From Oscillospiraceae bacterium (GTDB lineage Bacteria; Bacillota; Clostridia; Oscillospirales; CAG-272), in the NCBI GenBank assembly GCA_015064725.1, contig SVRQ01000009.1, positions 1,897 to 65,896 on the forward strand: 64,000 nt of DNA. Direction: 5' to 3'. Below, one piece after another: positions 6,079-57,256 of the stretch. Made by a program: the position numbers and the translations under genes. The notes beneath the pieces were generated by a model. It was given only the letters and a program-made list of their open reading frames with translations, did no database searches and was not told the origin of the DNA. Numbering within the stretch: the first letter of the stretch is position 1; each line of letters opens with the position of its first letter.

Positions 6079-6160
6079 ACGAACAATAGATACCCTCTCA
6101 GGCACCTTTCGGTGCCAGCTCTCCCAACGGGAGAGCCTTATGGGATTGAAAAGTAACAGA

Positions 6161-6352
6161 AAAAGAAAGTGCGTTGAGAAAAATTGCGTTACCTGCATTA
6201 AAAAATGCGGGTGCGAGGGAAGTTCTTTGCCCGCTTTCTTTCAAGAAAAAACATATTTGCTTTAAAAAGAAAGTGCGTTGAGAAAAATTGCGTTGCCTGC
6301 ATTAAAAAATGCGGGTGCGAGGGAAGTTCTTTGCCCACTTTCTTTCAAGAAA
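6161..6352 (+). repeat. tandem duplication of an 88-nt leader segment (period 104)
   Basis: 6161-6248 versus 6265-6352 are identical except for 2 mismatches. The second copy runs into the RBS of the pseudouridine synthase gene. Confidence 0.9.
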
Positions 6353-9575: not shown

Positions 9576-9740
9576 CATCGGGTAAAACAAAGAAGAACAT
9601 TCTCCGTTCTCACCCTGCCGCAAACGGCGCGCTCGGTCAATAAACAAGATAATACCTTACTTGCGTATATTTTCGGAAGTAATTATGTCTATATTTATGC
9701 GGAGAGCCTTACTTTGGTTTTCCGCATTTTATTTTGTTAT
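9576..9740 (+). promoter_or_regulatory. putative L20-responsive leader / transcription attenuator upstream of infC
   Basis: The leader is about 180 nt, between a consensus promoter and the infC RBS. It ends in an intrinsic terminator: ATGCGGA (9697-9703) pairs with TCCGCAT (9721-9727), followed by TTTTATTTT. Position and architecture match the Firmicute L20 leader, but the fold was not verified. Confidence 0.5.
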
Positions 9741-9754: not shown

Positions 9755-10270
9755 ATTAGCACGAAAGAAAATCTTATCAACGAGGAAATAAAGATCCCTG
9801 AAGTTCGTCTTGTAACAGACGAAGGCGAAATGCTTGGGGTTGTCAAAATCGCAAAGGCACTTGAAATGGCACAGGAGAGAGACCTTGATCTCGTACTTAT
9901 CTCCCCCTCCGCCGTTCCGCCCGTATGCAAAATAATGGACTACGGCAAGTTCTGCTTTGAAAAAGAAAAACGCGCTAAAGAAGCGAAGAAGAAACAGCAG
10001 GTTGTCGATGTAAAGGAAATTCAGCTTTCCTGTACGATCGGTGAGCACGATTTCCAGACGAAGCTTAACCACGCGCACCGCTTCCTTAAAGGCGGCGACA
10101 AAGTTAAGGTCGTTGTAAGATTCCGCGGAAGAGAAATGCGCCACACAGAGCTTGGCGCAGATATCCTTGCAAAGTTTGAAAAGGGTTGCGAGGGTGTTGG
10201 CACAGCGGAGAAAAAAGCTGTTCTTGACGGACGTAATATGACAATGTTCATCTCGCCCGTAAAACAATAA
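9755..10270 (+). CDS. infC: translation initiation factor IF-3
   Basis: Strong IF-3 sequence (LINEEIKIPEVRLV...VCKIMDYGKF...). The likely start is ATT at 9755, 7 nt after GGAGGTG (9741-9747). The ORF-track TTG at 9734 lies upstream of that RBS. Confidence 0.9.
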   Translation: MSTKENLINEEIKIPEVRLVTDEGEMLGVVKIAKALEMAQERDLDLVLISPSAVPPVCKIMDYGKFCFEKEKRAKEAKKKQQVVDVKEIQLSCTIGEHDFQTKLNHAHRFLKGGDKVKVVVRFRGREMRHTELGADILAKFEKGCEGVGTAEKKAVLDGRNMTMFISPVKQ

Positions 10271-10302
10271 ATTTTTGTATAAACTGAAAGGAATATAAAG
10301 TT

Positions 10303-10497
10303 ATGCCGAAGATCAAAACACACAAGGCTACATCTAAGAGATTTTCCACAACAAAGAGCGGTAAAGTAAAGCTCAATTCTTCTTTCCGTCGCCACAAGCT
10401 CGGAATCAAGACACCCAAACGTAAGAGACAGCTCAGAAAGAACGCTTACTTGAGCCCCTCTTTCGCAAAAACGATCAAATCCCTTATCAACGCTTAA
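10303..10497 (+). CDS. rpmI: 50S ribosomal protein L35
   Basis: MPKIKTHKATSKRF... 64 aa, in the canonical position after infC. Confidence 0.95.
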   Translation: MPKIKTHKATSKRFSTTKSGKVKLNSSFRRHKLGIKTPKRKRQLRKNAYLSPSFAKTIKSLINA

Positions 10498-15886: not shown

Positions 15887-15990
15887 AATAACACCTCGTT
15901 TATTATCGTTTATCGCGCGCGCCAATTCCGCCTTTGTATTACAAAAAGCATCTGGCAATGCCCTCATCCCTGAAGTTGAACGCATCCAAA

Positions 15991-16176
15991 GGCTCCTCCG
16001 GGAGGGAGCTCCAGACGGAGTCGGGTGAGGGAGAGCGCGTTACAATGAATTTGGCACAAGCTTAAAGTCACGCAAGCTCCTTCCGTCACGCTTCGCAGCG
16101 AACCCCCAAAGCTCATTTCATTCGCTTCGGGGAACCCCTGCCGCGTGCCACCTTCCTCCCGGAGGAAGGCTTTTTC
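15991..16176 (+). repeat. composite hairpin repeat module C
   Basis: Starts GGCTCCTCCGGGAGGGAGC and ends GCCACCTTCCTCCCGGAGGAAGGC followed by TTTTT. A homologous copy lies at 35820-35958. Confidence 0.85.
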
Positions 16177-16346
16177 GTTAGCCCCATTATAACACAAATC
16201 GGCAGAGAAGACAATATCTCTACCGATTTTTATGTGTGTATTAAGGACCGTCGGGGACGCCGGTCTCTACAATGCAATTCGTGAACATCCTTATGAGAAC
16301 CAACCTAAGGCACACTTTTTTCTTTTAAATAAAAATGTTTTTTATC

Positions 16347-17453: not shown

Positions 17454-17489
17454 AAATAATTACATAAGAAAAAAAGAAAGGAGCTCATA

Positions 17490-18209
17490 ATGTCGGAAAA
17501 ACGCAAAAGCATAGTCTTTGACTTCACGGAGCTCGAAGAAAAGATCAAATATACCTTTGCCGATAAGACGCTCCTCTACAACGCGCTTTGCCATTCCTCC
17601 TATTCCAATGAGCGAAAACACGAAAACATTTCATCAAACGAGCGTTTGGAATTTCTCGGTGACTCCGTCATCTATATAATCGCAAGCGAACATCTTTTTC
17701 GCTCGTTTTGCGAAAAGCCGGAAGGCGAGCTTTCAACTCTTCGCCGCGAGATAATCGACAGCGCGGCGCTTGAGTCCTTCGCGCGCAAGATAGACCTCGG
17801 CTCTTATATGTTCTTCGGCAACGGAGAGGAGAAAAACGGCGGCAGAGAAAGACGCTCCAACCTTGAAGATGCTTTCGAGGCTCTTGTCGGTGCAATATAT
17901 ATTGACGGCGGCTTCCTCAAGGCAAAGGAATTTTTCCTTCCTTTTGTGAAGGAAAAGGTACAGGCTCTTTTTGCAGAGCATAGGTTCAACGACCCCAAAT
18001 CCCTTTTGCAGGAGATAGTTCAGCAGAACGGCGAAACGCTTAAATATGAAAAGATAAAGGAAAGCGGCCCCGACCACGATAAACGCTTTACCTGCGTTGT
18101 AAAGCTCAACAGCAACGTTATCGGTATGGGAGAGGGCAGACGCATACAGGAAGCGGAGATGAATGCCGCGCGCGATGCGCTCAGCCTTTTCGGTGAACAG
18201 TGGAACTGA
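17490..18209 (+). CDS. rnc: ribonuclease III
   Basis: RNase III signature ERLEFLGDSV. C-terminal dsRBD (DPKSLLQEIVQ...FTCVVKLN...GRRIQEAEMNAA). Confidence 0.95.
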   Translation: MSEKRKSIVFDFTELEEKIKYTFADKTLLYNALCHSSYSNERKHENISSNERLEFLGDSVIYIIASEHLFRSFCEKPEGELSTLRREIIDSAALESFARKIDLGSYMFFGNGEEKNGGRERRSNLEDAFEALVGAIYIDGGFLKAKEFFLPFVKEKVQALFAEHRFNDPKSLLQEIVQQNGETLKYEKIKESGPDHDKRFTCVVKLNSNVIGMGEGRRIQEAEMNAARDALSLFGEQWN

Positions 18210-24421: not shown

Positions 24422-24814
24422 ATGCTTACAAGCAAACAGCGCGCGTACCTTCGCGGCCGCGCAAACGATTATGAAACAATATTTCAGGTGGGCAAGGGCG
24501 GCATAAACGAAAATATGCTCGAACAGATAGACAACGCCCTTGAAGCACGTGAGCTTATCAAGCTCCGCACGCTCGAAAACAGCGATTTCTTCGCGCGCGA
24601 AGCCGCTGAAACTATCGCAGAAGAGCTTGGTGCGGACGTTGTCAGCGTTGTCGGCTCCCGCTTTATTCTTTACAGAGAATCCGAGAAAAACAAAAAATTC
24701 GATATTGAAAAGCTTTGCATCATAGAGGAAGAAAAGAAGCCTGCTAAAAAAGTTCAGGTAAAACCCGCTATGAAAAGAAAAATTGCCAAAAAGCTTGCAA
24801 GAAAAGGCAAATAA
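24422..24814 (+). CDS. yhbY: YhbY-type CRM-domain RNA-binding protein (ribosome assembly)
   Basis: LTSKQRAYLRGRAN...FQVGKGGINENMLEQIDNALEARELIKL, followed by a Lys-rich C-terminal tail. ATG 24422 is preferred over the TTG at 24416. Confidence 0.85.
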   Translation: MLTSKQRAYLRGRANDYETIFQVGKGGINENMLEQIDNALEARELIKLRTLENSDFFAREAAETIAEELGADVVSVVGSRFILYRESEKNKKFDIEKLCIIEEEKKPAKKVQVKPAMKRKIAKKLARKGK

Positions 24815-24817
24815 TAA

Positions 24818-25137
24818 GCCTTCCCCTTTGGGTTGCGCCTTCAAATTCGCAGAATTTGAATTTTGCCTTGCAAAAAATCTTTGCTAAAGTAGGAAAGGCA
24901 ATAGATTTGTTCACACTTTGAGAAGGTGTCACGGAGTGACGGATGAGGTTTATCATTGCGCAAAACCTCTCCCGACGTGAGAGTCTTTCAAAAACGCAAA
25001 GCTTTAAATTTTATAGCATAGTAGGGGCGAGCATTGCTCGTCCGCGAAAAAGTAGGCAAAAAGAACTTTGTAAAAAAGCACGATAATTTTAGTAAAGTCC
25101 ATTGTCTTACCGTAGGGGAGGGGCTTGCTCCTCCCGC
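24818..25137. repeat. composite repeat block: split module A plus one 91-bp-type unit
   Basis: Left arm of module A lies at 24818-24832 and the remainder at 24920-24948, separated by about 87 bp with its own hairpins. 25021-25137 is homologous to the units of the 30375-30735 array. Confidence 0.85.
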
Positions 25138-27943: not shown

Positions 27944-30346
27944 ATGAGATACGATTTCAAAAATATCGAAGCAAAATGGCAGGAAGAATGGGAAAAAGCG
28001 GGTATTTTCCACGCTTCCGAAGACCACACAAAACCTAAATTCTACGGCCTTGTAGAATTCCCTTACCCCAGCGGCGCAGGTATGCACGTTGGCCATATCA
28101 AGGCTTATTCCGGTCTTGAGGTAGTTTCCCGTAAAAGACGTATGCAGGGCTACAACGTCCTTTTCCCCATGGGCTTTGACGCATACGGTCTTCCCACGGA
28201 AAACTCCGCTATCAAGTTCAATACACATCCCCGCATACTTACGGACAGAAACATTGAAAAATTCACCTCCCAGCTCAAGCGCGTCGGCTTCTCCTTCGAC
28301 TGGACTCGCGTTATCGACACAACGGACGAAAAATACTACAAATGGACACAGTGGATATTCCGCAAGATGTTCGATAAGGGTCTTGTTTTCCGTGCAACAA
28401 CGCTCGTTAACTACTGCCCCAACTGTAAGGTAGTCCTTTCCAACGAAGACTCCCAGGGCGGCAAGTGTGATATCTGCCACGGCGACGTTGTTCAGAAATC
28501 CAAGGACGTTTGGTATCTTCGCATTACGGAATACGCAGATAAGCTTCTCGAAGGTCTTAAAAAGGTTGATTACCTTCCCAACGTAAAGCTCCAGCAGGAA
28601 AACTGGATCGGCCGTTCCGAGGGTGCATTTGCGGATTTCAAGCTTACGAACTGCGATGAGTCCCTTCGCATCTACACAACACGCTGCGATACTATGTTCG
28701 GCGTAACGTTTATGGTTATCGCGCCCGAACATCCCATTATCGAAAAATACAAGGATAGAATAAACAACATAGAAGAGCTCGAAGCATACAAAGCAGAATG
28801 CGCTAAGAAGACTGAATTTGAACGCACACAGCTCGTTAAAGACAAGACCGGCGTTCGCATCGACGGTATTGCCGCTATCAACCCCGCAAACGGCAAAGAA
28901 ATTCCCGTTTATATTTCCGACTACGTTATGATGGGCTACGGCACGGGCGCTATTATGGCTGTTCCCGCGCACGATGAGCGCGACTATGATTTCGCAAAGA
29001 AATTCGGCATCGACATCATCGAGGTTATCAAGGGCGGCGACATTTCCAAGGAAGCCTACACGGGCGACGGCGAAATGGTAAACTCCGAATTCCTCAACGG
29101 TATCAAGACGAAGAAAGAAGCTATCGATAAGATGCTTGCTTACCTTTCCGAAAAGGGAATCGGCGAAAAGGGCGTACAGTACAAGATGAAGGACTGGGCG
29201 TTCAACCGCCAGAGATATTGGGGCGAACCCATTCCGATCATTCATTGCGAAAAATGCGGTATGGTTGGCGTTCCCTATGAAGAACTTCCCTTAAGACTTC
29301 CCGATATGGAAAACTTTGTTCCCGGCGAAGGCGGCGAAAGCCCCCTTGCAAAGGTAGAATCCTTTGTAAACTGCACTTGCCCCAAGTGCGGCGCTCCCGC
29401 AAAGCGCGAAACGGACACAATGCCCCAGTGGGCAGGCTCTTCCTGGTATTTCCTGCGTTACTGCGACGCGAACAACGAGGAAGCATTTGCAGATCAGGAA
29501 AAGCTTAAATATTGGCTCCCCGTTGACTGGTACAACGGCGGTATGGAGCACGTAACAAGACATATGATCTACTCTCGTTTCTGGCACCACTTCCTCTATG
29601 ACATTGGCGAGGTTCCCGTTGACGAGCCTTACGCAAAGCGTACAGCTCAGGGTCTTATCCTCGGACCGGACGGTGACAAGATGAGTAAATCCAAGGGCAA
29701 CGTTGTTGACCCCAACGACGTTGTTGACGAATACGGCGCAGACGTTCTCCGTATATACATCCTCTTTATGGGCGATTACGGCTCCGCAACTCCTTGGAAC
29801 GACAGCAGCGTTAAGGGCTGCAAGAGATTCCTTGAAAGAATAGCTGGTCTTACGGATATTGCAAAGGGCACGGGCGCAACACCCAAGCTTGAATCCGCTT
29901 TCCACAAGACCATAAAAAAGGTTTCTCAGGATATCGAGGAAATGAAGTTCAATACGGCCATTGCCGCTATGATGGCTCTTGTAAACGATATTTACGATGC
30001 CGGCACGCTCACGGTTGATGAGCTCAAGACGCTCATAACTCTCCTCAATCCTTTTGCGCCCCACATCACGGAGGAGATCTGGCACGTTCTCGGCGAGAAC
30101 ACACTCCTTTCCGTAGAGGCTTGGCCCTCCTACGACGAAGCGAAGACGGTTGATTCTACAGTTACGATCGCCGTTCAGATCTGCGGTAAGATGCGCGGTA
30201 CTATCGACGTTCCCGCAGGTGCGGAAGAAGACGTTGCTTTCGACATCATTATGAAAGACGAAAAGCTTTCTTCTTTCCTTGCAGGTAAGAACATCGTTAA
30301 AAAGATCTACGTTAAGAACAAGATCTTCAACATAATCGCCAAATAA
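27944..30346 (+). CDS. leuS: leucine--tRNA ligase
   Basis: HIGH-type motif MHVGHIKAY and KMSKS motif KMSKSKGN. CP1 editing domain present. 800 aa. Confidence 0.97.
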   Translation: MRYDFKNIEAKWQEEWEKAGIFHASEDHTKPKFYGLVEFPYPSGAGMHVGHIKAYSGLEVVSRKRRMQGYNVLFPMGFDAYGLPTENSAIKFNTHPRILTDRNIEKFTSQLKRVGFSFDWTRVIDTTDEKYYKWTQWIFRKMFDKGLVFRATTLVNYCPNCKVVLSNEDSQGGKCDICHGDVVQKSKDVWYLRITEYADKLLEGLKKVDYLPNVKLQQENWIGRSEGAFADFKLTNCDESLRIYTTRCDTMFGVTFMVIAPEHPIIEKYKDRINNIEELEAYKAECAKKTEFERTQLVKDKTGVRIDGIAAINPANGKEIPVYISDYVMMGYGTGAIMAVPAHDERDYDFAKKFGIDIIEVIKGGDISKEAYTGDGEMVNSEFLNGIKTKKEAIDKMLAYLSEKGIGEKGVQYKMKDWAFNRQRYWGEPIPIIHCEKCGMVGVPYEELPLRLPDMENFVPGEGGESPLAKVESFVNCTCPKCGAPAKRETDTMPQWAGSSWYFLRYCDANNEEAFADQEKLKYWLPVDWYNGGMEHVTRHMIYSRFWHHFLYDIGEVPVDEPYAKRTAQGLILGPDGDKMSKSKGNVVDPNDVVDEYGADVLRIYILFMGDYGSATPWNDSSVKGCKRFLERIAGLTDIAKGTGATPKLESAFHKTIKKVSQDIEEMKFNTAIAAMMALVNDIYDAGTLTVDELKTLITLLNPFAPHITEEIWHVLGENTLLSVEAWPSYDEAKTVDSTVTIAVQICGKMRGTIDVPAGAEEDVAFDIIMKDEKLSSFLAGKNIVKKIYVKNKIFNIIAK

Positions 30347-30374
30347 CCTACTTTTTCTTTCGGAGAAAAAGTAG

Positions 30375-30735
30375 GCAAAAAGAACTTTGCACAAAAAAAT
30401 ATAATATAATGTTAGCAAGACCATCGGCTTGCCGTAGGGGCGAGCATCGCTCGTCCGCAAAAAAGCAAAAAGAACTTTGCACAAAAACAATATAATATAA
30501 TGTTAGCAAGACCATCGGCTTGCCGTAGGGGCGAGCATCGCTCGTCCGCAAAAAAGCAAAAAGAACTTTGCACAAAAACAATATAATATAATGTTAGCAA
30601 AACCATTGATTTGCCGTAGGGGCGAGCATTGCTCGTCCGCAAAAAAGCAAAAAGAACTTTGCACAAAAACAATATAATATAATTTTGCAAACCCATCGGC
30701 TTTCCGTAGGGGAGGGGCTTGCTCCTCCCGTGAAA
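30375..30735. repeat. tandem array, 90/91-bp unit x 4
   Basis: Units start at 30375, 30465, 30556 and 30647. Unit sequence is GCAAAAAGAACTTTGCACAAAAACAATATAATATAATGTTAGCAAGACCATCGGCTTGCCGTAGGGGCGAGCATCGCTCGTCCGCAAAAAA. The last unit has the variant hairpin GGGGAGGGGCTTGCTCCTCCC. Confidence 0.95.
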
Positions 30736-30757
30736 GCTTTGCAGAAGAGTTATTCTT

Positions 30758-30800
30758 GCCTTCCACCTTTTGGGAAGGTGTCACGAAGTGACGAAAGAGG
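30758..30800 (+). repeat. hairpin repeat module A
   Basis: GCCTTCCACCTTTTGGGAAGG TGTCACGAAGTGAC GAAAGAGG. Confidence 0.9.
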
Positions 30801-30868
30801 CAAAAAACAACGAAATAGACTGCCCGAAAAATATTTTTTCGCTTTTCTGTGAAAAACACAAAAAAATA

Positions 30869-30897
30869 TTGACAAATCATTGACTTTAGGCTATAAT
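30869..30897 (+). promoter_or_regulatory. consensus SigA promoter for yceD-rpmF
   Basis: TTGACA (30869-30874), 17-nt spacer, TATAAT (30892-30897). Confidence 0.7.
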
Positions 30898-30947
30898 TTT
30901 AAAAGCGTACTATAACGTTGTATGTTATTTCGCAAAGGAGATTTTTT

Positions 30948-31454
30948 ATGAACTTGGATATGCGGCCGATACTTTGCGGCGAAAAAAACAAGATCGAATT
31001 TGATTTTGCTACCGTGCCGGAAGAAGAAGCGGTCCTCTCCGAGCTTTTTCCTGATGTAAAATTCCATACCCCTGTTTCCGTTAAGGGAAACGTAAAGAAT
31101 ATGTCGGGATATATGGTTCTTACGGTAAATTCCGATCTGTTGTTTACGGCGGATTGTGCCAGATGCACAAAACCGGTGGACGGTAAAGTCACGCTGTCTT
31201 TTGAGCGTGAGATCGCGGGAAAAGACACTTCCCAAGATAACGATGACTATATCTTTATCGAAGATAAAAAACTCGATATTTTCGAGCCCTTGATAGAACA
31301 GGTCCTTTTGGATATGCCTTCCAAAACGCTTTGTTCCGAAGACTGCAAGGGTCTTTGCCCGAAATGCGGTAAAAACCTCAACGAGGGTGAATGCGCTTGC
31401 CCCAAAAAGGAAATAGACCCCAGACTCGAAATTCTCAAAACATTATTACAATAA
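30948..31454 (+). CDS. yceD: YceD-family (DUF177) 23S rRNA accumulation protein
   Basis: Start moved to ATG 30948 (AAAGGAG RBS). C-terminal CxxxCxxLCPxCGxNLN...C.C metal motif. Lies immediately upstream of rpmF, as is usual. Confidence 0.85.
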   Translation: MNLDMRPILCGEKNKIEFDFATVPEEEAVLSELFPDVKFHTPVSVKGNVKNMSGYMVLTVNSDLLFTADCARCTKPVDGKVTLSFEREIAGKDTSQDNDDYIFIEDKKLDIFEPLIEQVLLDMPSKTLCSEDCKGLCPKCGKNLNEGECACPKKEIDPRLEILKTLLQ

Positions 31455-35819: not shown

Positions 35820-35958
35820 GGCTCCTTCCGGGAGGGAGCTGTCGCCATAAGGCGACTGAGGGAGAGTGCGTAAACATAAAATTTTATCAAAAATTGAAAT
35901 AACGCATGCTCCTTCCGTCATTTGCTTCGCAAACGCCACCTTCCTCTCGGAGGAAGAC
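35820..35958 (+). repeat. composite hairpin repeat module C
   Basis: GGCTCCTTCCGGGAGGGAGC ... TGAGGGAGAGTGCGT ... ACGCATGCTCCTTCCGTCA ... GCCACCTTCCTCTCGGAGGAAG. Homologous to 15991-16176. Confidence 0.85.
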
Positions 35959-41394: not shown

Positions 41395-41764
41395 ATTGAC
41401 CGGGCGGAACGATCGCGTAATATGTTGCCGAAAGGTATTATTATGAGGAAAGTCCGGGCTTCATAGGGCAGGATAACGGATAACGTCCGCCGAAGGTGAC
41501 TTCCGGGAAAGTGCAACAGAAATAAACCGCCGTCCTCGGACGGTAAGGATGGAAAGGCGAGGTAAGAGCTCACCGACCCTCAGGTAACTGGGGGTGCAAT
41601 GTAAACCCTATCCGAAGCAACGCCCCGCGCTTATACGGTCTGCCCGACCAAAGCGAAAGCTTGGCGTGCGGCGGCAACCTGCAAAAACAGGTAAGGTGTG
41701 TGGCAACACACATCGCAGATAGATGATCGTTCTCGACAGAACCCGGCTTACACGCCCGGTCAAT
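41395..41764 (+). ncRNA. rnpB: RNase P RNA
   Basis: Universal GAGGAAAGTCCGGGC box at 41444-41458 and ACAGAACCCGGCTTA near the 3' end. A perfect 12-bp P1 stem forms between ATTGACCGGGCG (41395-41406) and CGCCCGGTCAAT (41753-41764). Confidence 0.93.
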
Positions 41765-41786
41765 ATTGTTTATTCCAAAAAAATTA

Positions 41787-41843
41787 AACAGCAGCCTTGC
41801 GGTACTCGGATAAGAGTATCACGCAGGCTGCTGTTTTCTTTTT
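41787..41843. terminator. stem-loop terminator between rnpB and the convergent ygjV-like gene
   Basis: AAACAGCAGCCTTGCG (41787-41802) pairs with CGCAGGCTGCTGTTT (41822-41836) with one bulged T in the left arm, followed by TTTTCTTTTT. Confidence 0.7.
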
Positions 41844-42387
41844 AACCTTTGTCATATCCCGTTTTGCGGAAGCGTATGAACGAAACTATAACGGAGAGCA
41901 TATTGAACACCTCGCAAAGTATGCCGCCAACGGAAAAATAATATACATTGTTTACTATCCAAAGCGGAGAGATAAGGAAGAGCTGCGCACGGCGTATGAT
42001 TTTGCCGTCGCGTGTCCACATTGCAAGCGTACCGCCCGCCTGCGCTATGAAGAGGAGGAGGGCTATCCAAATGACCTCGTCGAAAATAAATACGGAGATG
42101 AGCGAGGATGCTGCGAAGCAGACTTCCATTATCAGAAGATAGACTATCTTTTTGCATCTTTCTCCAAGAGCGAAGATGATGCCGCGCAAAACGCTGAATA
42201 TATTCAAGAGCATTCCCGCAAAAGAGCCCAATAGGGCAAATTGCAGGGTGAAAGCTATACCGCACCCCATTTGAAAAAGGAAATAGCTGCGGTTTTTCTT
42301 GCATTGATACGATATGAGCGCGCAGAGCATACCTGCGTACCCGATAAGCTGTATGGGAGAAAAAGTTTTTGCCAAAAATTCTATCAT
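41842..42387 (-). CDS. YgjV-family inner membrane protein
   Basis: Start moved to ATG 42387. 181 aa with about 5 TM helices. Size and pattern resemble the Imp-YgjV family. Preferred over the antisense ORF 41797..42234. Confidence 0.6.
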   Translation of the reverse strand: MIEFLAKTFSPIQLIGYAGMLCALISYQCKKNRSYFLFQMGCGIAFTLQFALLGSFAGMLLNIFSVLRGIIFALGERCKKIVYLLIMEVCFAASSLISVFIFDEVIWIALLLFIAQAGGTLAMWTRDGKIIRRAQLFLISPLWIVNNVYYFSVGGILCEVFNMLSVIVSFIRFRKTGYDKG

Positions 42388-42435
42388 AAAATATAACCCT
42401 CTTTGATGATTTTTTATACCATATGGTATTGCTCT

Positions 42436-42550
42436 GAGCGGGCGAACGCAGTTCGCCCCTACGCACATAATTGAGCTTTTAGCAAATATCAATATTATAT
42501 TTGCCGAAATTAAAGCTTTTGCTCGTAGGGGAGAACTGTGTTCTCCCGCC
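42436..42550. repeat. pair of inverted module-B hairpins
   Basis: GAGCGGGCGAACGCAGTTCGCCCCTACGC (42436-42464, inverted) and CTCGTAGGGGAGAACTGTGTTCTCCCGCC (42522-42550). Confidence 0.8.
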
Positions 42551-42718
42551 TTTTTATTGCCTGAAAAATTGCGTAAAATCAGACCTCGCCGTTTGGCTTT
42601 TTATACAGATGAAAAGCATCAATAGGCGAGCGTTTGGAGGCGGGCATTGCCCGCTTTTTTACGAACACAATTAAGGCGTATTATATCACCAAAGAGGGTT
42701 AAAATCAATATTTATGAA

Positions 42719-43588: not shown

Positions 43589-43730
43589 CCTCTTTCGTCA
43601 CAATTTCATTGTGACACCTTCCCCAAAGGGGAAGGCGCATAGAACAACATTAAATTTTCATAAAACCTCTTTCGCTGTGGCAGGCCTTCCCCTTTGGGGA
43701 AGGTGTCAACCGCAGGTTGACGGAAGAGGT
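43589..43730. repeat. two module-A hairpin repeats in inverted orientation
   Basis: 43589-43637 is the reverse complement of module A. 43684-43730 is the forward copy, with GTCAACCGCAGGTTGAC as a variant second hairpin. Confidence 0.85.
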
Positions 43731-49309: not shown

Positions 49310-50152
49310 TTGAATAAAATAATTCTCAAGACCCAGCTTTTGTATTCCGAAATGGGAAAATCCGAAAAAAAGGTTGCGGATTGGCTTATTTCCCATCCGG
49401 GAGATAATCTTCCGATGTCTATTTCGGAGCTTGCCGAGCTTTGCGAAAGCTCGGAATCCACCATTGTGCGTTTTGCCCGCAGGCTCGGCTTTTCCGGCTA
49501 CGGAGAGCTTAAGATCTGCGTTGCGGGAGAGCAGGAGAAAAAGGTGGTATTGCCCACGATAAACGAAAATGACTCCTGCTTTGAGATACTTGAAAAAATA
49601 TGTAACGATGCATACCTTTCCTTTGAGCGCACAAAGCGCACCATCGCTCCCGAAAACATTGCCGCCGCGGCAAACCTTATCGCGGGCGCGGGCAAGACCG
49701 TGCTTATCGGTCTCGGCTCCTCCGCCTCCGTTGCACAGGATGCGGCAAACAAGTTTTTGCGCGCCGGCTACCCCGCGTACTCCTACGGGGATACGCATAT
49801 GCAGATGATAGCTGCCTCCCATATGAAGGCGGGGGACGTGCTTATAGGCGTTTCCCAATCCGGTGCTTCAAAGGATATAGTGGAGGCGCTCAAGTTCGCA
49901 AAGAGCCGCGGAATCTCCACCATCTGCATCACGGGTACAGATAGATCGCCCATTATGAAACAGAGCGACATCGTACTTTTAACGGACACGGAGGAAACGA
50001 AGCACAGCTCCCTTGCGCTGAGTTCCCATCTGTCGCGCCTGGTTGTCATAGACTCTCTTTGCTATTACCTTGTATATAGAAACGAGGCAAACGGCACGGG
50101 CCTTGACGAGGAAAACGAAAATAACCTCAGATCCAAACGCGTTAACGAATAA
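49310..50152 (+). CDS. MurR/RpiR-family transcriptional regulator (HTH + SIS sugar-phosphate domain)
   Basis: HTH_6 region (EKKVADWLISHPGD...SISELAELCESSESTIVRFARRLGFSGY). SIS domain (VLIGLGSSASVAQD...VSQSGASKD). TTG start. Confidence 0.85.
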   Translation: MNKIILKTQLLYSEMGKSEKKVADWLISHPGDNLPMSISELAELCESSESTIVRFARRLGFSGYGELKICVAGEQEKKVVLPTINENDSCFEILEKICNDAYLSFERTKRTIAPENIAAAANLIAGAGKTVLIGLGSSASVAQDAANKFLRAGYPAYSYGDTHMQMIAASHMKAGDVLIGVSQSGASKDIVEALKFAKSRGISTICITGTDRSPIMKQSDIVLLTDTEETKHSSLALSSHLSRLVVIDSLCYYLVYRNEANGTGLDEENENNLRSKRVNE

Positions 50153-50195
50153 ACAGTCAATTTTTATACAAGCAAATAAATGCGGAGGAAAAGTT

Positions 50196-51395
50196 ATGAA
50201 AATTTTGGTTATCAACTCGGGCAGTTCATCGCTTAAATATCAGCTTTTCGATATGACAAGCGGGGAAGTGCTTGCAAAAGGCCTTTGCGAACGCATCGGC
50301 GGCGAATGCGGTATCATTACCCACAAGCGCCCCGGACACGAGCCATATAAGGCAGAACCCGTGCTTCCCGACCACGGTGCGGCTCTTTCTCTGGTTCTTG
50401 GTCTTATCACGGATAAGGAGCTTGGCGTTATCGAGCATATCGACGAGATAGAAGCTGTTGGCCACCGCGTGGCACACGGCGGCGAAATGCTCAAGAGCTC
50501 TTCTCTTATCGGAGAAAAGGAGCTTGAATACCTCTATTCCATCGTGGATATAAACCCCCTGCACGGTCCGCCCGCGATCAAGGGCATAGAAGCGTGCAAA
50601 AAGCTTCTTCCCAAGGTACCGCAGGTCGGCGTTTTCGATACGTCTTATTACAGCACGATACCCGATTACACTTACATCTGCCCTTTGCCTTACGAATATT
50701 ACGAAAAATATAAAATACGCCGCTACGGCTTCCACGGCACCAGCCACCGTTTTGTAACGGCGGAATGTGCAAAGATCATGGGCAAGCCGCTTGAAGAACT
50801 TAAAATAATCACTTGCCATATGGGCAACGGCTCCTCCATCACGGCAACAAAATACGGCAAGGCTCTTGATACGTCTATGGGCTTTACCCCTCAGGACGGT
50901 CTTATAATGGGTACACGCTCCGGCGCTATAGACCCTACCGTTCTTACATATATTATGAAAACGGAAAACGTTTCCGCACAGGAAATGGACGATATAATCA
51001 ACCGCAAATCCGGTCTTCTCGGTGTTTCCGGCGTTTCCAACGACTGCCGCGAGATCTGGGAAGCTGCGGACGCAGGCAATAAGAGAGCAAAGCTTGCGCT
51101 CGATATGCTTATAAACGACGTTAAAAAGATAGTAGGCTCTTACCTTGCCGAAATGAACGGCGCGGATGCGCTCGTATTCACAGCGGGTATCGGCGAAAAT
51201 GACTTTGCCGTACGCGAAGGCGTTTGCCGCGATATGGATTTCTTCGGTATCAAGATAGACGAAGAAAAGAACAAGAACGCCGCAAGAGGCGAATTTAACG
51301 ATATTACCGCGCCGGACGGAAAGATGAAGGTCTTCATCATTCCCACGGACGAGGAATATATGATAGCAAAAGACACACAAAATCTTGTAAAATAA
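50196..51395 (+). CDS. ackA: acetate/propionate kinase
   Basis: Start moved to ATG 50196 (GGAGGA RBS). MKILVINSGSSSLKYQLF, HRVAHGG, YGFHGTSH, FTAGIGEN. 399 aa. Confidence 0.93.
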   Translation: MKILVINSGSSSLKYQLFDMTSGEVLAKGLCERIGGECGIITHKRPGHEPYKAEPVLPDHGAALSLVLGLITDKELGVIEHIDEIEAVGHRVAHGGEMLKSSSLIGEKELEYLYSIVDINPLHGPPAIKGIEACKKLLPKVPQVGVFDTSYYSTIPDYTYICPLPYEYYEKYKIRRYGFHGTSHRFVTAECAKIMGKPLEELKIITCHMGNGSSITATKYGKALDTSMGFTPQDGLIMGTRSGAIDPTVLTYIMKTENVSAQEMDDIINRKSGLLGVSGVSNDCREIWEAADAGNKRAKLALDMLINDVKKIVGSYLAEMNGADALVFTAGIGENDFAVREGVCRDMDFFGIKIDEEKNKNAARGEFNDITAPDGKMKVFIIPTDEEYMIAKDTQNLVK

Positions 51396-51418
51396 TTAAA
51401 TGAAAGGAATATAAAACT

Positions 51419-52222
51419 ATGGTTTCATCTTTCGAAATTAAAAAAGAGATCTGCGAAGTAGGTCACAAAATCTATGCAGAGGGCTTCGTTGCTGCAAACG
51501 ACGGTAACATCTCCGTTAAAGTAAACGATAACGAATACTACTGCACCCCCACAGGCGTTTCCAAGGGCGACCTTACACCCGATATGATCATTCGTATCGA
51601 CGGCAAGGGCAACAAGATCGAAGGCAGACTCAACCCCTCCTCCGAAATTAAAATGCACCTCCGTGTTTACCAGGAACGTCCCGACGTAAACGCAGTTGTA
51701 CACGCTCATCCCCCCGTTGCAACAGCCTTCACAGTTGCAGGCGTACCGCTTGACAAGTACATCCTTCCCGAAGCAGTTCTTACAATCGGCTTCGTTCCCA
51801 CTTGCGAATACGGTACACCCTCCACAATGGAAATTCCCGATTCCCTTATGCCCTACATCCAGAACCACGACGCGTTCCTTCTCAAAAACCACGGTGCTCT
51901 TACAGTAGGTAACACACTTAAAAAAGCTTTCTTCACAATGGAAGAAGTTGAATTCAACGCAAAGATCTGCAAATACGCTATGGAACTCGGCAAGGTTGAA
52001 GAAATTCCTTGCGATCAGCTTGAAAAGCTCATGGATCTCCGTAAGAAGATGCGTATCCCCGGCAAGCACCCCGGCTGCAAAACTTGCAAAAACCTCGGCA
52101 CACCCGATTGCAAGTGCAAACAGAATGCAGAACCCAAGAGCGGCATCGTAACGGCTTCCGGCGCTGACGAAGCTCTCATTGCTGAAATCACAAAGAAAGT
52201 TCTCGCTTCTCTTGGCAGATAA
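51419..52222 (+). CDS. class II aldolase (L-fuculose/rhamnulose-phosphate aldolase-like) with a C-terminal encapsulation peptide
   Basis: Aldolase_II motifs (GNISVKV, EIKMHLRVY, VVHAHPP, LLKNHGALTVG). C-terminal extension CKTCKNLGTPDCKC followed by the amphipathic helix DEALIAEITKKVLASL. Confidence 0.85.
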   Translation: MVSSFEIKKEICEVGHKIYAEGFVAANDGNISVKVNDNEYYCTPTGVSKGDLTPDMIIRIDGKGNKIEGRLNPSSEIKMHLRVYQERPDVNAVVHAHPPVATAFTVAGVPLDKYILPEAVLTIGFVPTCEYGTPSTMEIPDSLMPYIQNHDAFLLKNHGALTVGNTLKKAFFTMEEVEFNAKICKYAMELGKVEEIPCDQLEKLMDLRKKMRIPGKHPGCKTCKNLGTPDCKCKQNAEPKSGIVTASGADEALIAEITKKVLASLGR

Positions 52223-52267
52223 TTTTTGGCTTTGCTGAAAATTAAACCTTGAAAGGAGAGATATAAA

Positions 52268-53725
52268 ATGGCAATCAACTGGACAGACGCGCAGATAGAA
52301 GAGATCGTTAAAATGGTCGTTTCCCAGATCGGCGGCGAGGCGAAAAAAGAAACGCCCGCATTCGATTCCGAAAGCTATAACGGCAGAAAATTTATCGGTA
52401 TCTTCGAGGATATGAACGATGCCATAAACGCCGCAAATGCAGGCTATAAGGCAATTCGCTCTATGCGCGTTGAAGAAAGAGAAAAGCTCATCTCCAAGAT
52501 CCGCGAGCTTACGCGCGAGGAAGCCGAAATTATGGCGACCATCGGCGTTGCGGAAACAAAGATGGGCAGAGTAGATCACAAGATCGCAAAACACCGTCTT
52601 GTAGCAGACAAGACGCCCGGAACGGAAGACATCATCTCTCAGGTTAAAACAGGCGACTGCGGTCTTACGCTTACGGAAATGGCTCCTTTCGGCGTTGTTG
52701 GCAGCATTACTCCCAGCACGAACCCTTCCGAAACAGTCATCTGCAACAGTATGGGTATGATAGCGGCGGGCAACGGTATCGTTTTCAACCCCCACCCCAA
52801 CGCTATTGCAACATCCAACTATGCCGTTGACCTTATAAACCGTGCGTGCTTCGCAGCGGGCGGCCCCAAGATACTTGTTGCCTCCGTTAAGAAGCCCACG
52901 CTCGATACGGCGAACATTATGTATAAGAGCCCGCTTATCAGACTTCTCGTTTGTACCGGCGGCCCCGGCGTTGTAAAAGCTGTTCTTTCCTCCGGCAAGA
53001 AGGCTATCGGCGCGGGCGCGGGAAATCCCCCCGTTATCGTTGACGATACGGCGGATATAAAGAAAGCCGCAAAAGACATTATCGACGGCTGTACGTTCGA
53101 TAACAACCTGCCCTGCATCGCGGAAAAGGAAGTTTTCGCGTTCGACAATATTGCGGACGAGCTTATCGACGGTATGCTGAAGAACGGCGCATACAAGATC
53201 ACGGCGGCGCAAGCGGACGAGCTTGCAAAGATAGTTCTCGTTGACGTTAAGAACCCCAAAACAGGCATCGTTAAGAAGACTGTTTGCCGCGACTGCGTCG
53301 GCAGAGATGCAAAGGTGCTTCTCTCCAAGATCGGCGTAAGCGTTGGCGATGAGGTTCGCTGCATTATATGCGAAACGGGCTTTGACCACCTCTTCGTTCA
53401 GGAAGAGCTTATGATGCCCATCCTTCCCATCGTTCGCGTTAAGAACATCGACGAAGCTATCGAAAAGGCTGTTGCCGCAGAACACGGAAACAGACATACG
53501 GCTCATATGCACTCCAAGAATATCGACAACCTCACAAGATTTGCGCGTGCGGTTGAAACGACTATATTCGTTAAAAACGCTCCTTCCTACGCGGGCATAG
53601 GCTTTGGCGGCGAAGGACATACAACATTTACTATCGCAGGCCCCACGGGCGAGGGTATCACCTCCGCGAAGAGCTTTACTCGCCTTCGCCGCTGCGTAAT
53701 GGCGGACAATTTCCGCATAATCTAA
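52268..53725 (+). CDS. CoA-acylating aldehyde dehydrogenase (PduP/EutE-like) with an N-terminal encapsulation peptide
   Basis: N-terminal helix TDAQIEEIVKMVVSQI followed by a linker. ALDH core with catalytic Cys in NNLPCIAEKE. 485 aa. Confidence 0.88.
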   Translation: MAINWTDAQIEEIVKMVVSQIGGEAKKETPAFDSESYNGRKFIGIFEDMNDAINAANAGYKAIRSMRVEEREKLISKIRELTREEAEIMATIGVAETKMGRVDHKIAKHRLVADKTPGTEDIISQVKTGDCGLTLTEMAPFGVVGSITPSTNPSETVICNSMGMIAAGNGIVFNPHPNAIATSNYAVDLINRACFAAGGPKILVASVKKPTLDTANIMYKSPLIRLLVCTGGPGVVKAVLSSGKKAIGAGAGNPPVIVDDTADIKKAAKDIIDGCTFDNNLPCIAEKEVFAFDNIADELIDGMLKNGAYKITAAQADELAKIVLVDVKNPKTGIVKKTVCRDCVGRDAKVLLSKIGVSVGDEVRCIICETGFDHLFVQEELMMPILPIVRVKNIDEAIEKAVAAEHGNRHTAHMHSKNIDNLTRFARAVETTIFVKNAPSYAGIGFGGEGHTTFTIAGPTGEGITSAKSFTRLRRCVMADNFRII

Positions 53726-53744
53726 TCGAAAGGATGAGATAGAA

Positions 53745-54992
53745 ATGGCATTTAACCCTTCCGACATTGAAAGCATCGTTCGCAAGATCGTAAGCGAGAT
53801 GAACGGCGCGGGCGAGCACAAGCACGAATGCTGCGGCGGCCACGGCGGCGAATGCAAATGCGGCAAGCATTCCGCAGGCATCCCCAAGACAGCCAAGGTT
53901 GCGATGCTTACAAAAACAAAAACTATCGAGATCAAGGAATTCCCCATTCCCGAACTTCAGGATGACGACATCCTCGTTAAGGTAGAAGGCGCAGGCATCT
54001 GCGGTACGGACGTTCACGAATGGAGAGCAGACCCGTTCGGTCTTATGCCCGTAGTCCTCGGTCACGAAGGCACAGGCGAGATCATTGCTCTCGGTAAAAA
54101 CATTAAAACAGATACATCCGGCAAGCCCATCAAGGTTGGCGATAAGGTGGTAACTTCCGTTATCTCCTGCGGCGAATGCAACATCTGCCGCAACCATCCC
54201 GCGAATACAAACCTTTGCGACAAGCAGGGCGTGTTCGGCCTTATCCCCCACAATGACGAACAGCCCCTCCTCGGCTGGTTCGCAACACATCTTCTTATCC
54301 GCGGCAAGGGTTCTACATACTTTGTTGTAAACGACCTTGACCTTTACGAAAGAATGATACTTGAGCTTGCTTGCGTTTGCGTTCACGCCCTCAAGCGTGC
54401 AAACGGCACAGGTCTTATGAATTTCAATACTAAAGTTGTTATCCAGGGTCTTGGCCCCGTTGGTCTTGTTATGGCTTGCGTGCTCCGCGCGGCGGGTATC
54501 AACCATATCATCGCCATCGACGGTACACAGACAAGACTTGATATGGCTAAAAAGCTCGGCGTTAAGACAGTCATCAACTTCAAGGAAGCAAAAACTCTTG
54601 AAGAGCGCGTAGCTCTCGTTACGGAAGCGTGCGGCGGCAACCTTGCCGACTTCGCATTCCAGTGCACGGGCGTTCCCGCGGCTGCTGCCGACATCTACTC
54701 CTACATCCGCCGCGGCGGCGGTATGTGCGAAATGGGCTTCTTCGTTAACAACGGCGAATACCAGATCAACCCCCACTTCACAATGTGCAACAAAGAGATC
54801 AACCTTGTTGGTTCTTGGGACTACAGCGCAGACGATTATCCCACAACAATGGCGTTCCTCCGTCAGGCAAGAGAGATGAACATTCCGATCAAAGAACTCA
54901 TCACTCATACATATCCGCTTGAAAAGATGAACGAAGCAATGGAAATGAACGTTTCCCAGCAGGGCATAAAGATCTGCTACGTTGCTGACTAA
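53745..54992 (+). CDS. zinc-dependent MDR alcohol dehydrogenase with an N-terminal encapsulation peptide
   Basis: N-terminal helix SDIESIVRKIVSEM, then HKHECCGGHGGECKCGKH. The MDR core has GICGTDVHEW, GHEGTGEI, structural Zn site CGECNICRNHPANTNLC, and GLGPVG NAD-binding fold. 415 aa. Confidence 0.85.
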   Translation: MAFNPSDIESIVRKIVSEMNGAGEHKHECCGGHGGECKCGKHSAGIPKTAKVAMLTKTKTIEIKEFPIPELQDDDILVKVEGAGICGTDVHEWRADPFGLMPVVLGHEGTGEIIALGKNIKTDTSGKPIKVGDKVVTSVISCGECNICRNHPANTNLCDKQGVFGLIPHNDEQPLLGWFATHLLIRGKGSTYFVVNDLDLYERMILELACVCVHALKRANGTGLMNFNTKVVIQGLGPVGLVMACVLRAAGINHIIAIDGTQTRLDMAKKLGVKTVINFKEAKTLEERVALVTEACGGNLADFAFQCTGVPAAAADIYSYIRRGGGMCEMGFFVNNGEYQINPHFTMCNKEINLVGSWDYSADDYPTTMAFLRQAREMNIPIKELITHTYPLEKMNEAMEMNVSQQGIKICYVAD

Positions 54993-55003
54993 GGAGAGCG
55001 CAT

Positions 55004-55342
55004 ATGGCACTCGGTATGATAGAAGTTTACGGCTTTACCACGGCTATCGTTGTAGCAGATAAGGTTGCAAAAAGTGCCGATGTCAAGGTCGTTGCTATAG
55101 ACAAAAATAAGCCCGCAAACGCAGATAAGGTGGAAGTTCCCCTTGTTATGGTAGTTAAGTTTGAGGGCGGCGCTTCCGAGGTTGCCGCGGCTATGGACGC
55201 AGGCGTTGCGGAAGCGGAAAAGAGAAATCTTTTCATTACATCAAAGCTTATTTCCAGACAGTCGGAGGAGATAGAGTGGTTCGCGAATCTCAGCGCACTC
55301 GGAAAAGACAAACTCCGCAACACGGAAAAAGAAGAAAACTAA
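55004..55342 (+). CDS. BMC-H shell protein (divergent, with internal insertion and C-terminal tail)
   Basis: Pfam00936-type start ALGMIEVYGFTTAIVVADKVAKSADV. Insertion DKNKPANADKVEVP. 112 aa. Confidence 0.8.
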   Translation: MALGMIEVYGFTTAIVVADKVAKSADVKVVAIDKNKPANADKVEVPLVMVVKFEGGASEVAAAMDAGVAEAEKRNLFITSKLISRQSEEIEWFANLSALGKDKLRNTEKEEN

Positions 55343-55391
55343 AAAAAATAAAAATCAAACAAAAATATAAAATTAAAGGAGAACAATTATT

Positions 55392-55667: not shown

Positions 55668-55691
55668 TTCTTAAAGAAACGGTACGAAATT

Positions 55692-55967: not shown

Positions 55968-56016
55968 TAAGACCCATTTGAAGAAATACAAAAAATTTTA
56001 ATGGAGGTAATATACA

Positions 56017-56289: not shown

Positions 56290-56301
56290 TTAAACTTTCG
56301 T

Positions 56302-57235: not shown

Positions 57236-57256
57236 TTTTTCGACGGGAGTAATGAT

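Follow-up and report, generated by a model that had tools for sequence, protein, structure and literature searches.

Evidence for Two Families of Structured DNA Repeats, GTAG-Tagged REPs and Two-Hairpin Elements with Mirror Tails, in Uncultured Clostridia

Introduction

The GTAG superfamily of repetitive extragenic palindromic (REP) elements is defined by its anatomy, a GTAG tag and a GC-rich palindrome, and the published survey of these elements spans Proteobacteria, Cyanobacteria, Chloroflexi, and PVC, without Firmicutes (PMC3733652). In the described systems (REP/BIME with RayT in Escherichia coli, the REPtron Sm of Stenotrophomonas maltophilia, and REPIN/RAYT in Pseudomonas), the REPs are extragenic and multi-copy, fall into several sequence classes per genome, form inverted pairs and clusters, and have a REP-associated tyrosine transposase (RAYT) as partner. 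In Clostridia, Bertels et al. 2017 reported Group 1 RAYTs, whose association with 16-mers is weak. A different kind of repeat is the E. coli BoxC/PIT/TMECO motif, which Holder et al. 2015 gave as CCCTCNCCC-N3-6-GGGNGAGGG-N3-GGGNGAGGG, a class II intrastrand triplex (PMC4666352). In this study, a 64,000-nt stretch of DNA (hereafter, the window) from an Oscillospiraceae bacterium (Clostridia; GenBank assembly GCA_015064725.1, contig SVRQ01000009.1, positions 1,897 to 65,896) was analysed. Its spacers hold what are probably two unrelated families of structured non-coding DNA repeats, GTAG-tagged REPs and two-hairpin elements of the triplex type, typical of uncultured gut and rumen Clostridia represented by Oscillospiraceae-type metagenome-assembled genomes (MAGs).

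To my knowledge, nearly all work on REPs and RAYTs has dealt with Proteobacteria. Nunvar 2010 is reportedly another source on GTAG-tagged REPs, and Hoyne et al. 2000 is said to treat the BoxC / PIT elements. The initial annotation of the window described a single modular family with three modules, A, B, and C, and could assign none of them to a named element. The picture given below differs on both counts. Module B belongs to one family, modules A and C belong to another, and each family has a described counterpart.

Results

GTAG-Tagged REPs in the Window and in Other Genomes

It was found that module B is a GTAG-tagged REP, a kind of element that is already named, which removes the novelty that the initial annotation had considered for it. 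GTAG abuts a GC-rich stem of 8 bp whose loop has 3-4 nt, so that a copy measures 23-26 nt, and the tag and stem are present in 12/12 intact copies of the window. The layout is that of REPSm of S. maltophilia, where GTAG, 8 bp, and a 3-nt loop make 23 nt (PMC8266576). There are five stem types: REP1 (GGGCGAGC/GCTCGTCC) and REP2 (GGGAGGGG/CTCCTCCC), each with one G.T pair, REP3 (GGGCGAAC/GTTCGCCC), REP4 (GGGAGAAC/GTTCTCCC), and a short type (GGGAC/GTCCC). The pattern GTAGGGG-N13-YCC occurs nine times in the window while 0.10 occurrences are expected, and 0/100 shuffles reached nine.

The REPs are not peculiar to this genome. A scan for REP1 and REP2 with one genome per species returned at least 120 contig stretches; among the matches listed, nearly all are uncultured gut or rumen Clostridia MAGs (labelled Oscillospiraceae, Faecousia, Acutalibacteraceae, Ruminococcus, and similar). 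In the loci fetched (about 90 genomes), identical 23-mers have unrelated flanks, and therefore the REP appears as a short autonomous unit. The window and the loci together hold 72 GTAG-plus-hairpin types in 267 instances, where the chance expectation of about 1-2 types is my own estimate and not the output of a tool. The outer GGG/CCC of the stem is kept while the inner pairs are compensatory, with double-sided changes in 6/8 pairs (66 cells). Since the rows counted were preselected for pairing, which tells against the count, the evidence lies in the diversity of stem types and not in the percentage paired. GTAG and the following GG are invariant in 38 distinct types with a 3-nt loop. Only 24% of the REPs in the loci lie in long ORFs (open reading frames), as compared with 75% of random positions, a three-fold depletion. 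Module B is a new lineage of the known REP/RAYT system whose hosts are Clostridia.

A few exact REP2 or REP1 matches carry labels from outside the Clostridia, namely L080 (Rheinheimera soli), L118 (an Acidobacteriota MAG), and L003 (labelled Coriobacteriaceae). The label of L003 may be a binning error because its leuS is 75% identical to that of the window, and the matches in L080 and L118 could be due to chance, contamination, or transfer.

The largest REP cluster follows leuS on the plus strand (30375-30738). As seen from the unit alignment, it consists of four ~91-bp units, each an AT-rich linker plus a REP, with REP1 three times and then REP2 once. REP1 (GTAGGGGCGAGCATCGCTCGTCCGC, with an 8-bp stem including one G.T) lies at 30434-30458, its identical or near-identical copies lie at 30525-30549 and 30616-30640, and REP2 (GTAGGGGAGGGGCTTGCTCCTCCCGT) lies at 30706-30731. 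Tandem Repeats Finder gave a 91-bp unit x 3.7 at 30375-30712 with 94% matches; this unit is the linker plus REP1. On the same strand, a REP1 copy at 25021-25045 opens a composite homologous to the leuS array unit, which closes with a REP2 copy at 25112-25137. Both loci are alike in the order REP1-linker-REP2, and the linker-REP1 part has been amplified at leuS.

Other copies are more scattered. REP3 (GTAGGGGCGAACTGCGTTCGCCCGC; 42438-42462, minus strand; fold z -2.4), situated 5' of where a ygjV-like gene probably starts, makes an inverted pair with REP4 (GTAGGGGAGAACTGTGTTCTCCCGC; 42525-42549, plus strand; fold z -3.3). A REP2 copy at 56464-56489 (plus strand) lies in a microcompartment operon, between a BMC (bacterial microcompartment) shell gene and the PTAC gene. 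The 90-bp x 2 tandem duplication at 63224-63384 (plus strand) contains three REPs of alternating orientation at 63249-63267 (+), 63286-63308 (-), and 63339-63357 (+). Two degenerate copies have GTAGA or GCAG. One of these is GTAGAGACCGGCGTCCCCGACGGTCC at 16246-16274 (minus strand), whose intact type, GTAGGGACCGACGTCCCCGGCGGTCC, is present in L038 and L065. The other is GCAGGGACAACCATTGGTCGTCC at 829-851 (minus strand), with GCAG for GTAG, which is an addition to the copies initially listed. The inverted REP pairs (42438/42525, 63249/63286/63339, and pairs in many loci) may be likened to REPINs or BIMEs (bacterial interspersed mosaic elements).

The copy number of such units changes between strains. 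The 90-bp unit of 63224-63384 is present twice in the window and once in two contigs that are 98-99% identical. I infer that the arrays arise by slippage or unequal recombination. The strand of the REPs is also uneven, as GTAG is on the plus strand in 10/12 intact copies. The steady rise of the GC skew points to the plus strand as the probable lagging-strand template, which fits an HUH enzyme acting on single-stranded DNA (ssDNA); this strand bias comes from a small sample and is confounded with gene orientation.

A Probable RAYT Partner in Related Genomes

There is no RAYT in the window, as the initial annotation had said: a phmmer search with E. coli RayT against all window ORFs found none, and the gene tables of the window show no transposase domain. 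Is there a partner enzyme in related genomes? A pattern search for Y..NP with HUH gave no match, while phmmer with E. coli RayT succeeded. Three RAYT-like ORFs were found among the fetched loci (E 3e-7 to 1.5e-3), with HUH and Y motifs of the forms 'MPNHIH' and 'YI(E/H)NNP'. More than 1,200 close relatives belong to this family, which counts 16,271 representatives at E up to 1e-3, and JGI names some of its members 'REP element-mobilizing transposase RayT'. The sole sequence match of the RAYT in the PDB is 4ER8, TnpAREP. An AlphaFold model (pLDDT 80.8) likewise has 4ER8 as its best Foldseek match (E 2.8e-8, TM 0.61). Thus, the search for a mobiliser that had been proposed fails within the window and succeeds in related genomes, where RAYT genes carry the same REPs.

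The TnpA enzymes of IS200/IS605 share the HUH-Y1 fold (Foldseek matches to ISDra2 and IS608 TnpA, E ~1e-7) and recognise an ssDNA hairpin with a 5' guide tetranucleotide in the same way (PMC8266576). In contrast to IS200/IS605, no transposable unit with these hairpins at its ends encloses the RAYT genes, which have housekeeping contexts instead. The order is ruvC-ruvA-RAYT-ruvB in L124, and likewise in L125 and L126. In L127, one RAYT gene is beside gyrA (10001-10486) and a second paralogue is beside gyrB (17457-17945, minus strand). The window REP1 itself, as GTAGGGGCGAGCATTGCTCGTCCG, lies inside the RAYT genes L124:10001-10507 and L127:10001-10486, and further REP1 copies are dispersed in the spacers around them.

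From these likenesses, the following steps may be proposed. The window REPs would be ssDNA hairpin substrates of a RAYT/TnpAREP (HUH-Y1) enzyme, presumably encoded elsewhere in the genome. The enzyme would bind the folded GTAG strand and cut beside it, and it would then disseminate or rearrange the hairpins.

A REP Pair inside the RAYT Reading Frame

In all cases where the RAYT gene was seen at the DNA level (L014, L107, L112, L124, both L127 paralogues, and L136-L139), a pair of REPs is inside the ORF. The first REP reads in sense and falls after strand b1 and before the HUH motif; the second is antisense, just after the HUH strand and about 190 nt downstream. Both are read in frame, so that a peptide 'VG......' comes before HUH and '......PT' comes after it. 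REP2 is read as VGEGLAPP and GGASPSPT, and REP1 as VGASIARP and GRAMLAPT. The latter two peptides were predicted from the window REP1 before the search and were then found in 41 RAYTs. Other pairs, such as VGRGLAPA/AGASPRPT and VGAGLCSA/AEQSPAPT, occupy the same two positions in RAYTs of 35-60% identity. The L127 paralogues each have their own in-frame REP type, VGASIARP/GRAMLAPT and VGQGLAPA/AGASPCPT.

It was assessed by an exact test whether both peptides of a RAYT can be encoded by reverse-complementary DNA. Compatible pairs were found in 112/119 relatives of P0001, 58/119 relatives of P0246, and 33/112 diverse representatives, as against 28/3,162 cross pairings. In six RAYT genes of 45-85% identity, 14/16 invariant-residue columns use a single codon in the REP peptides, while only 5/47 do so elsewhere. 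The frozen synonymous sites therefore indicate selection or homogenisation on the DNA, and not on the protein alone. An inverted REP1 pair with a distance of 135-165 nt had five metagenome matches, 4/5 of which are in RAYT ORFs and 0/5 of which come from the JGI samples of the window. As a control, the REPs of E. coli K-12 flank rayT and none is within the coding sequence. Thus, the REPs are outside rayT in E. coli, while a REP pair is inside the RAYT ORF in the Clostridia relatives.

It might be argued that the REPs are not mobilised by RAYT at all, being passive relics, products of gene conversion, or elements spread by other means that have invaded RAYT genes, so that the link is incidental. 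In agreement with this, both in-ORF peptides are inserted segments when E. coli TnpAREP is taken as the reference, and the model places them in lower-confidence loops, where they could be tolerated. Some family members (P0131, P0151, and one 'EKATLDDV' variant) are devoid of the peptides, and REPs inside other genes have been reported (PMC3733652). An incidental link does not account for insert positions that stay the same across divergent RAYTs of differing REP type, for the covariation of the two copies, for the difference between true and cross pairings, or for the concentration of inverted REP1 pairs in RAYT ORFs. Moreover, where a genome has a particular REP in its RAYT ORF, dispersed copies of that REP lie in the vicinity. 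I consider an incidental link very unlikely and retain RAYT as the likely partner of the REPs.

On a more tentative reading, the conserved pair would make the hairpins in the gene functional cis sites, with possible roles in autoregulation, in self-cleavage or inversion of the HUH segment, or as a heritable master copy that keeps enzyme and repeat matched. A description of the in-ORF arrangement was not found in the searchable literature, which is absence of evidence only.

Some variants of the arrangement were also seen. The RAYT ORFs P0124, P0271, and P0272 have in-frame tandem expansions of REP plus linker (for example, four '...VGARIARPSIDQDN...' copies with a 23-aa period), which mirror the intergenic REP-plus-linker arrays of the window. 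In L137:287-2023, a stop-to-stop ORF runs from the RAYT (VGASIARP/GRAMLAPT) into a long downstream coding sequence, which I take to be ArgJ-like, with no stop between them. This ORF could be a fusion, or it could merely lack a stop before the next start codon.

Two-Hairpin Elements with a Mirror Tail

Modules A and C make up the second family, whose units are called A-type here. The order of a unit is G, hairpin 1 (hp1), (C)T, hairpin 2 (hp2), and a G/A/T-rich tail. Hp1 has a pyrimidine 5' arm of 7-9 nt, a loop of 3-6 nt, and a purine 3' arm. Hp2 is variable, while its foot is kept as GTC...GAC or GGC...GCC; it is preceded by a spacing of 1-4 nt and followed by 0-3 nt. With DNA parameters, the units fold as two adjacent hairpins and a free tail (z -2.5 to -6.2). 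The defining feature, which the initial annotation overlooked, is that the tail is the mirror image (the reverse, not the complement) of the purine arm of hp1 and changes together with it. For example, the arm GAGGGGG is accompanied by the tail GGGGGAG, GGGAGAG by GAGAGGG, AGGGAGG by GGAGGGA, and GAGGAAGG by GGAAGGAG. The Clostridia loci gave 145 candidates, of which 84 are strict units found in 36 loci and the window.

This covariation was measured by permutation. The agreement of the tail with the mirror of the arm is 0.627, while permuted pairs give 0.554 +/- 0.009 (z 8.5, 0/2,000). The agreement with a direct copy of the arm is 0.543 as compared with 0.533 +/- 0.0075 (z 1.3), which is at chance, and the tail was thus rejected as a direct copy. 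When the 21 asymmetric arm types are taken, the mirror scores 0.704 against 0.579 +/- 0.023 (0/5,000). The tail was also rejected as a Watson-Crick partner of the pyrimidine arm, which is impossible for asymmetric arms. Aligned positions of arm and tail are G*G in 300 cases, A*A in 98, T*A in 47, and A*G in 29. A purine-motif triplex, whose third strand runs antiparallel to the purine strand, would need just such a mirror tail that covaries with the arm. The G-rich strand is favoured as the folding strand because T stands opposite A.T pairs. In ssDNA, the tail would fold back antiparallel onto the purine arm, and the resulting class II purine-motif triplex would use hp2 as the connector.

The initial annotation could not assign these modules, and the layout fits the class II intrastrand triplex of BoxC/PIT/TMECO. 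Both have the order of 5' pyrimidine domain, 3-6-nt loop, purine domain, and 3' reverse-Hoogsteen G/A/T domain, with G*G-C, A*A-T, and T*A-T triads, and both are dispersed in intergenic DNA, occasionally form inverted pairs, and are linked to local instability (PMC4666352). The differences are in the connector, the sequence, and the host. The second loop of BoxC/PIT/TMECO is 3 nt, while that of the A-type units is a hairpin of 11-61 nt with a conserved foot and 1-7 flanking nucleotides. Loop 1 is as short as the loops of class II triplexes (1-6 or 0-10 nt) and the second connector is longer, and the published finder (loops of 1-6 nt) would miss the A-type units because a hairpin replaces the second loop. 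The A-type sequences differ from CCCTCNCCC...GGGNGAGGG. As A-type arms are often mirror-asymmetric, a mirror repeat and a direct repeat can be told apart, and the covariation becomes visible. The A-type hosts are Clostridia, and neither Firmicutes nor Clostridia are named in the main text of PMC4666352. Modules A and C are probably an intrastrand triplex repeat in a new form.

In the window, A-type units have no strand bias (6 plus, 7 minus). A single unit at 4701-4743 (plus strand) has hp1 CCTTCCCC/GGGGAAGG, hp2 GTCAC-gaa-GTGAC, and the tail GGAAGAGG (arm mirror GGAAGGGG; z -3.8). It adjoins a 73-bp x 3.3 array at 4461-4704, found by Tandem Repeats Finder, which is made of A-type units on the minus strand (4482-4524, 4555-4597, and 4628-4670; z -3.6) and is new relative to the initial annotation. 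The element at 6093-6137, which had been taken as a short form of module C at 6090-6140, is indeed related; it is a minus-strand unit of the module A type, whose tail GAGAGGG is the exact mirror of its purine arm GGGAGAG (z -5.2). The copy at 24818-24948, described as split or nested, resolves into a 15-nt partial copy (24818-24832) and a full unit with a degenerate hp1 (24910-24948, plus strand), and nesting cannot be shown. Another unit (30758-30800, plus strand) comes directly after the REP array at leuS.

Module C is not a third module, since both of its copies consist of two inverted units of the module A type. At 15991-16170, these are 15991-16035 (+) and 16076-16170 (-), the latter with an extended hp2. 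At 35820-35956, they are 35820-35866 (+) and 35908-35956 (-) with a spacer of ~40 nt (z -3.7 and -2.5). In the minus-strand unit of both copies, the arm is GAGGAAGG and the tail its exact mirror, GGAAGGAG. A similar inverted pair lies at 43589-43729, with 43589-43636 on the minus strand and 43684-43729 on the plus strand (z -6.2 and -5.0); its hp2 stems are unlike each other (GTCACAAT/ATTGTGAC and GTCAACC/GGTTGAC).

These pairs raise the question of whether modules A and C are ordinary miniature inverted-repeat transposable elements (MITEs). Such elements would derive from an insertion sequence (IS) with terminal inverted repeats of ~45 nt and be moved by a DDE enzyme, and the purine tail would be a protein-binding or end sequence. 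The composites at 15991-16170, 35820-35956, and 43589-43729 are, like MITEs, short non-coding units with inverted terminal structures, here a short core with an inverted unit on either side. Hp2 keeps GTC...GAC at its foot while its top varies, as for a hairpin recognised by a protein. On the other hand, no target-site duplication is visible at either copy of module C, and a parent IS was not met in passing in ~940 kb of loci plus the window, where no systematic search was made. Many units are solitary or in head-to-tail arrays, unlike MITEs, and a MITE origin offers no account of the internal mirror symmetry. A mirror repeat makes no symmetric site in double-stranded DNA and does not pair by Watson-Crick rules with the pyrimidine arm, and yet it covaries with the purine arm. 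An origin as ordinary MITEs is therefore unlikely, and the triplex repeat is the reading that I prefer for modules A and C.

Placement of the Repeats and Other Assignments

The placement of both families was examined on a gene map made of precomputed annotations of identical metagenome contigs and Pfam scans. All copies are intergenic, as the initial annotation stated: 28/28 elements lie inside spacers of at least 100 nt, and 11/19 of these spacers (5,192 nt, 8% of the window) hold repeat elements. Every coordinate listed for a module copy holds a copy when the sequence is read. It also held true that the repeats are structured, tandemly amplified, and combined in varying orders, and that their stems alter in sequence and keep pairing, both in the REPs and in hp2 of module A, which varies and always folds. 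Both families occur singly, as inverted pairs, and as tandem arrays of repeat plus linker. Ungapped repeat detection recovered module B (families D4 and D6), module A (D8 and D9), and the 90-bp x 2 repeat at 63224-63384 (D14). Because the REPs are short, hp2 of the A-type units is variable in length, and a covariance model cannot score base triples, the scans relied on explicit patterns and hairpins, together with permutation tests. In the locus L050:2300-5700, a tandem array with a period of ~140 bp has units of an A-type element, a linker, and REP1, and therefore joint amplification of both families occurs elsewhere.

Could the repeats be an assembly artefact or a chance pattern of low complexity? 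Contigs do end within arrays, and the exact copy numbers of the arrays are therefore uncertain. One JGI contig covers exactly 4461-30521, which means that the assembly breaks at two arrays. The repeat regions are nevertheless matched at 99-100% identity by independent assemblies from different samples, and I take the elements as real because these assemblies reproduce them. More than 100 further assemblies contain these elements too, and the REP motif is present far above its expectation (9 vs 0.1). The probability of an artefact is negligible.

A further possibility is that the hairpins are cis elements at the RNA level (terminators, 3'-end stabilisers, or processing sites) and not mobile or selfish DNA. 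The GTAG strand is the sense strand of co-directional flanking genes in 10/12 intact REPs, several REPs are within operons (56464, 63249-63357, and 25021-25137), and the two dominant REP types have their G.T (G.U) pair on the GTAG strand. E. coli REPs affect mRNA decay, which was also counted in favour of RNA roles. Against such roles, no hairpin is followed by a T-run, and the terminator scan of 30300-31000 was empty, so that intrinsic terminators were rejected; the REPs are followed by GCAAAAAA or by mixed sequence. The A-type units occur on both strands equally, the same 23-mer is found in unrelated contexts in ~90 genomes, and the same REPs are inside RAYT ORFs. Purine-motif triplexes do not form in RNA (literature cited in PMC4666352). 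A known RNA family was rejected as the identity of the repeats: at the gathering threshold, Rfam matched only RNase P in the window and none of the repeats, and at E up to 1 it gave only spurious miRNA-precursor matches on the inverted pair (43612-43708). Because of the missing T-runs, the two orientations, the lack of an Rfam match, and the unrelated contexts, RNA roles are unlikely to be primary. A secondary RNA effect is possible and is compatible with the REPs and A-type units being DNA elements.

Several other assignments were tried and rejected. The 91-bp array is not a CRISPR array, since its 'spacers' are 94-99% identical to each other, and the gene tables of the window contain no cas domains. 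A tRNA-derived origin was rejected because the window has no tRNAs. There are no promoter-like sites inside the 91-bp array. ORFs that run through repeats at 29291-30490, 30503-30880, 15964-16197, and 24768-24956 (all minus strand) were rejected as coding and are artefacts of stop-poor repeats. The same applies to the N-terminal extension of the ORF at 41842-42492 (minus strand), where 'VGANCVRP' is read through REP3 and the Pfam match begins at residue 47. Spurious ORFs made by repeats probably seed many 'hypothetical proteins' of MAGs. The 273-nt repeat at 55397-55669 and 56019-56291 (92%) is not a family member and consists of paralogous BMC-H genes.

Other Features of the Window

Some neighbouring features are unrelated to the two families. 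A 104-bp x 1.9 tandem repeat of 97% identity (6160-6352) is upstream of a pseudouridine synthase gene whose start differs between gene callers (324 vs 348 aa). A perfect hairpin of 10 bp, CCCACTTTCTT-tca-AAGAAAGTGGG, closes the second unit of this repeat ~10 nt 5' of the ATG at 6365; the repeat is unrelated to the REPs and the A-type units. A perfect sigma-70 consensus, TTGACA-17-TATAAT (30869-30897), the sole promoter match of the scan around the 91-bp array, is outside the repeats, just 3' of the leuS repeat block and upstream of a yceD-like gene. The spacer of REP3 and REP4 also contains a hairpin resembling a terminator, AGGCGGGC-att-GCCCGCTT, with TTTTT after it (42638-42662, plus strand), which belongs to neither family.

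Bacterial RNase P class A RNA is encoded at 41397-41766 (260 bits). A sub-threshold match to the ribosomal protein L20 leader at 9584-9739 (33.7 bits, E 0.0085) is directly upstream of infC-rpmI-rplT and is plausibly real. The region 49543-64000 is a glycyl-radical-enzyme microcompartment locus with genes for an aldolase, an aldehyde dehydrogenase, an alcohol dehydrogenase (ADH), several BMC shell proteins, PTAC, EutN, and a PFL-like enzyme with its activase, and REPs are found between genes of the operon.

Discussion

The closest described counterparts of the two families are the GTAG REP/RAYT systems and the BoxC/PIT/TMECO triplex repeats, and some points weigh against these comparisons. The window itself lacks a RAYT. 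A cognate RAYT in the organism's own genome would be expected from its relatives, and none of the 120 loci is from the same species (the best leuS match is 75% identical). The RAYTs found there score below the curated cut-off of NCBIfam REP_Tyr_transpos (NF047646; E 1e-17 to 1e-19, 62-68 bits vs 80), and with Pfam Y1_Tnp (PF01797) they reach 0-25 bits at a cut-off of 23, so that only some members pass. The clade is divergent, and the profile is interrupted by the in-ORF inserts. Classical BIMEs alternate, whereas the largest clusters here (30375-30738 and 25021-25137) are direct repeats, head-to-tail arrays of REP plus linker. As for the A-type units, the covariation suggests that the triplex would form physically, and the tail is imperfect in several window copies (GGAAGAGG vs GGAAGGGG at 4701, and GAAAGAGG at 30758). 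A corresponding pyrimidine-motif triplex on the opposite strand would also be conceivable in principle. For this family, whose mobilisation route I infer, no enzyme, target-site duplication, or empty site was found.

With these points in mind, a wider proposal can be put forward tentatively, as one that may or may not hold. The RAYTs of this Clostridia clade would carry their cognate REP pair in frame, an architecture not described before, and in the A-type elements, natural covariation of asymmetric purine arms and mirror tails would for the first time, among repeat families, support an intramolecular DNA triplex in vivo.

What do these repeats mean for the Clostridia? Abundant gut and rumen members that are known mainly from MAGs hold a rich REP system. 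The repeats break assemblies, as seen from the JGI contig that ends in two arrays, and they yield spurious ORFs and odd 'hypothetical proteins' with peptides such as VGANCVRP. As the copy number varies between near-identical strains, the arrays are possible strain markers. The RAYT clade with its in-frame REP pair offers a handle on how enzyme and repeat are matched, and on self-regulation or self-rearrangement of RAYT. The A-type elements provide comparative evidence, of the kind usually obtained only for RNA helices, for selection on a purine-motif DNA triplex in cells. Through their defined natural variants, the function of a triplex in vivo becomes testable.

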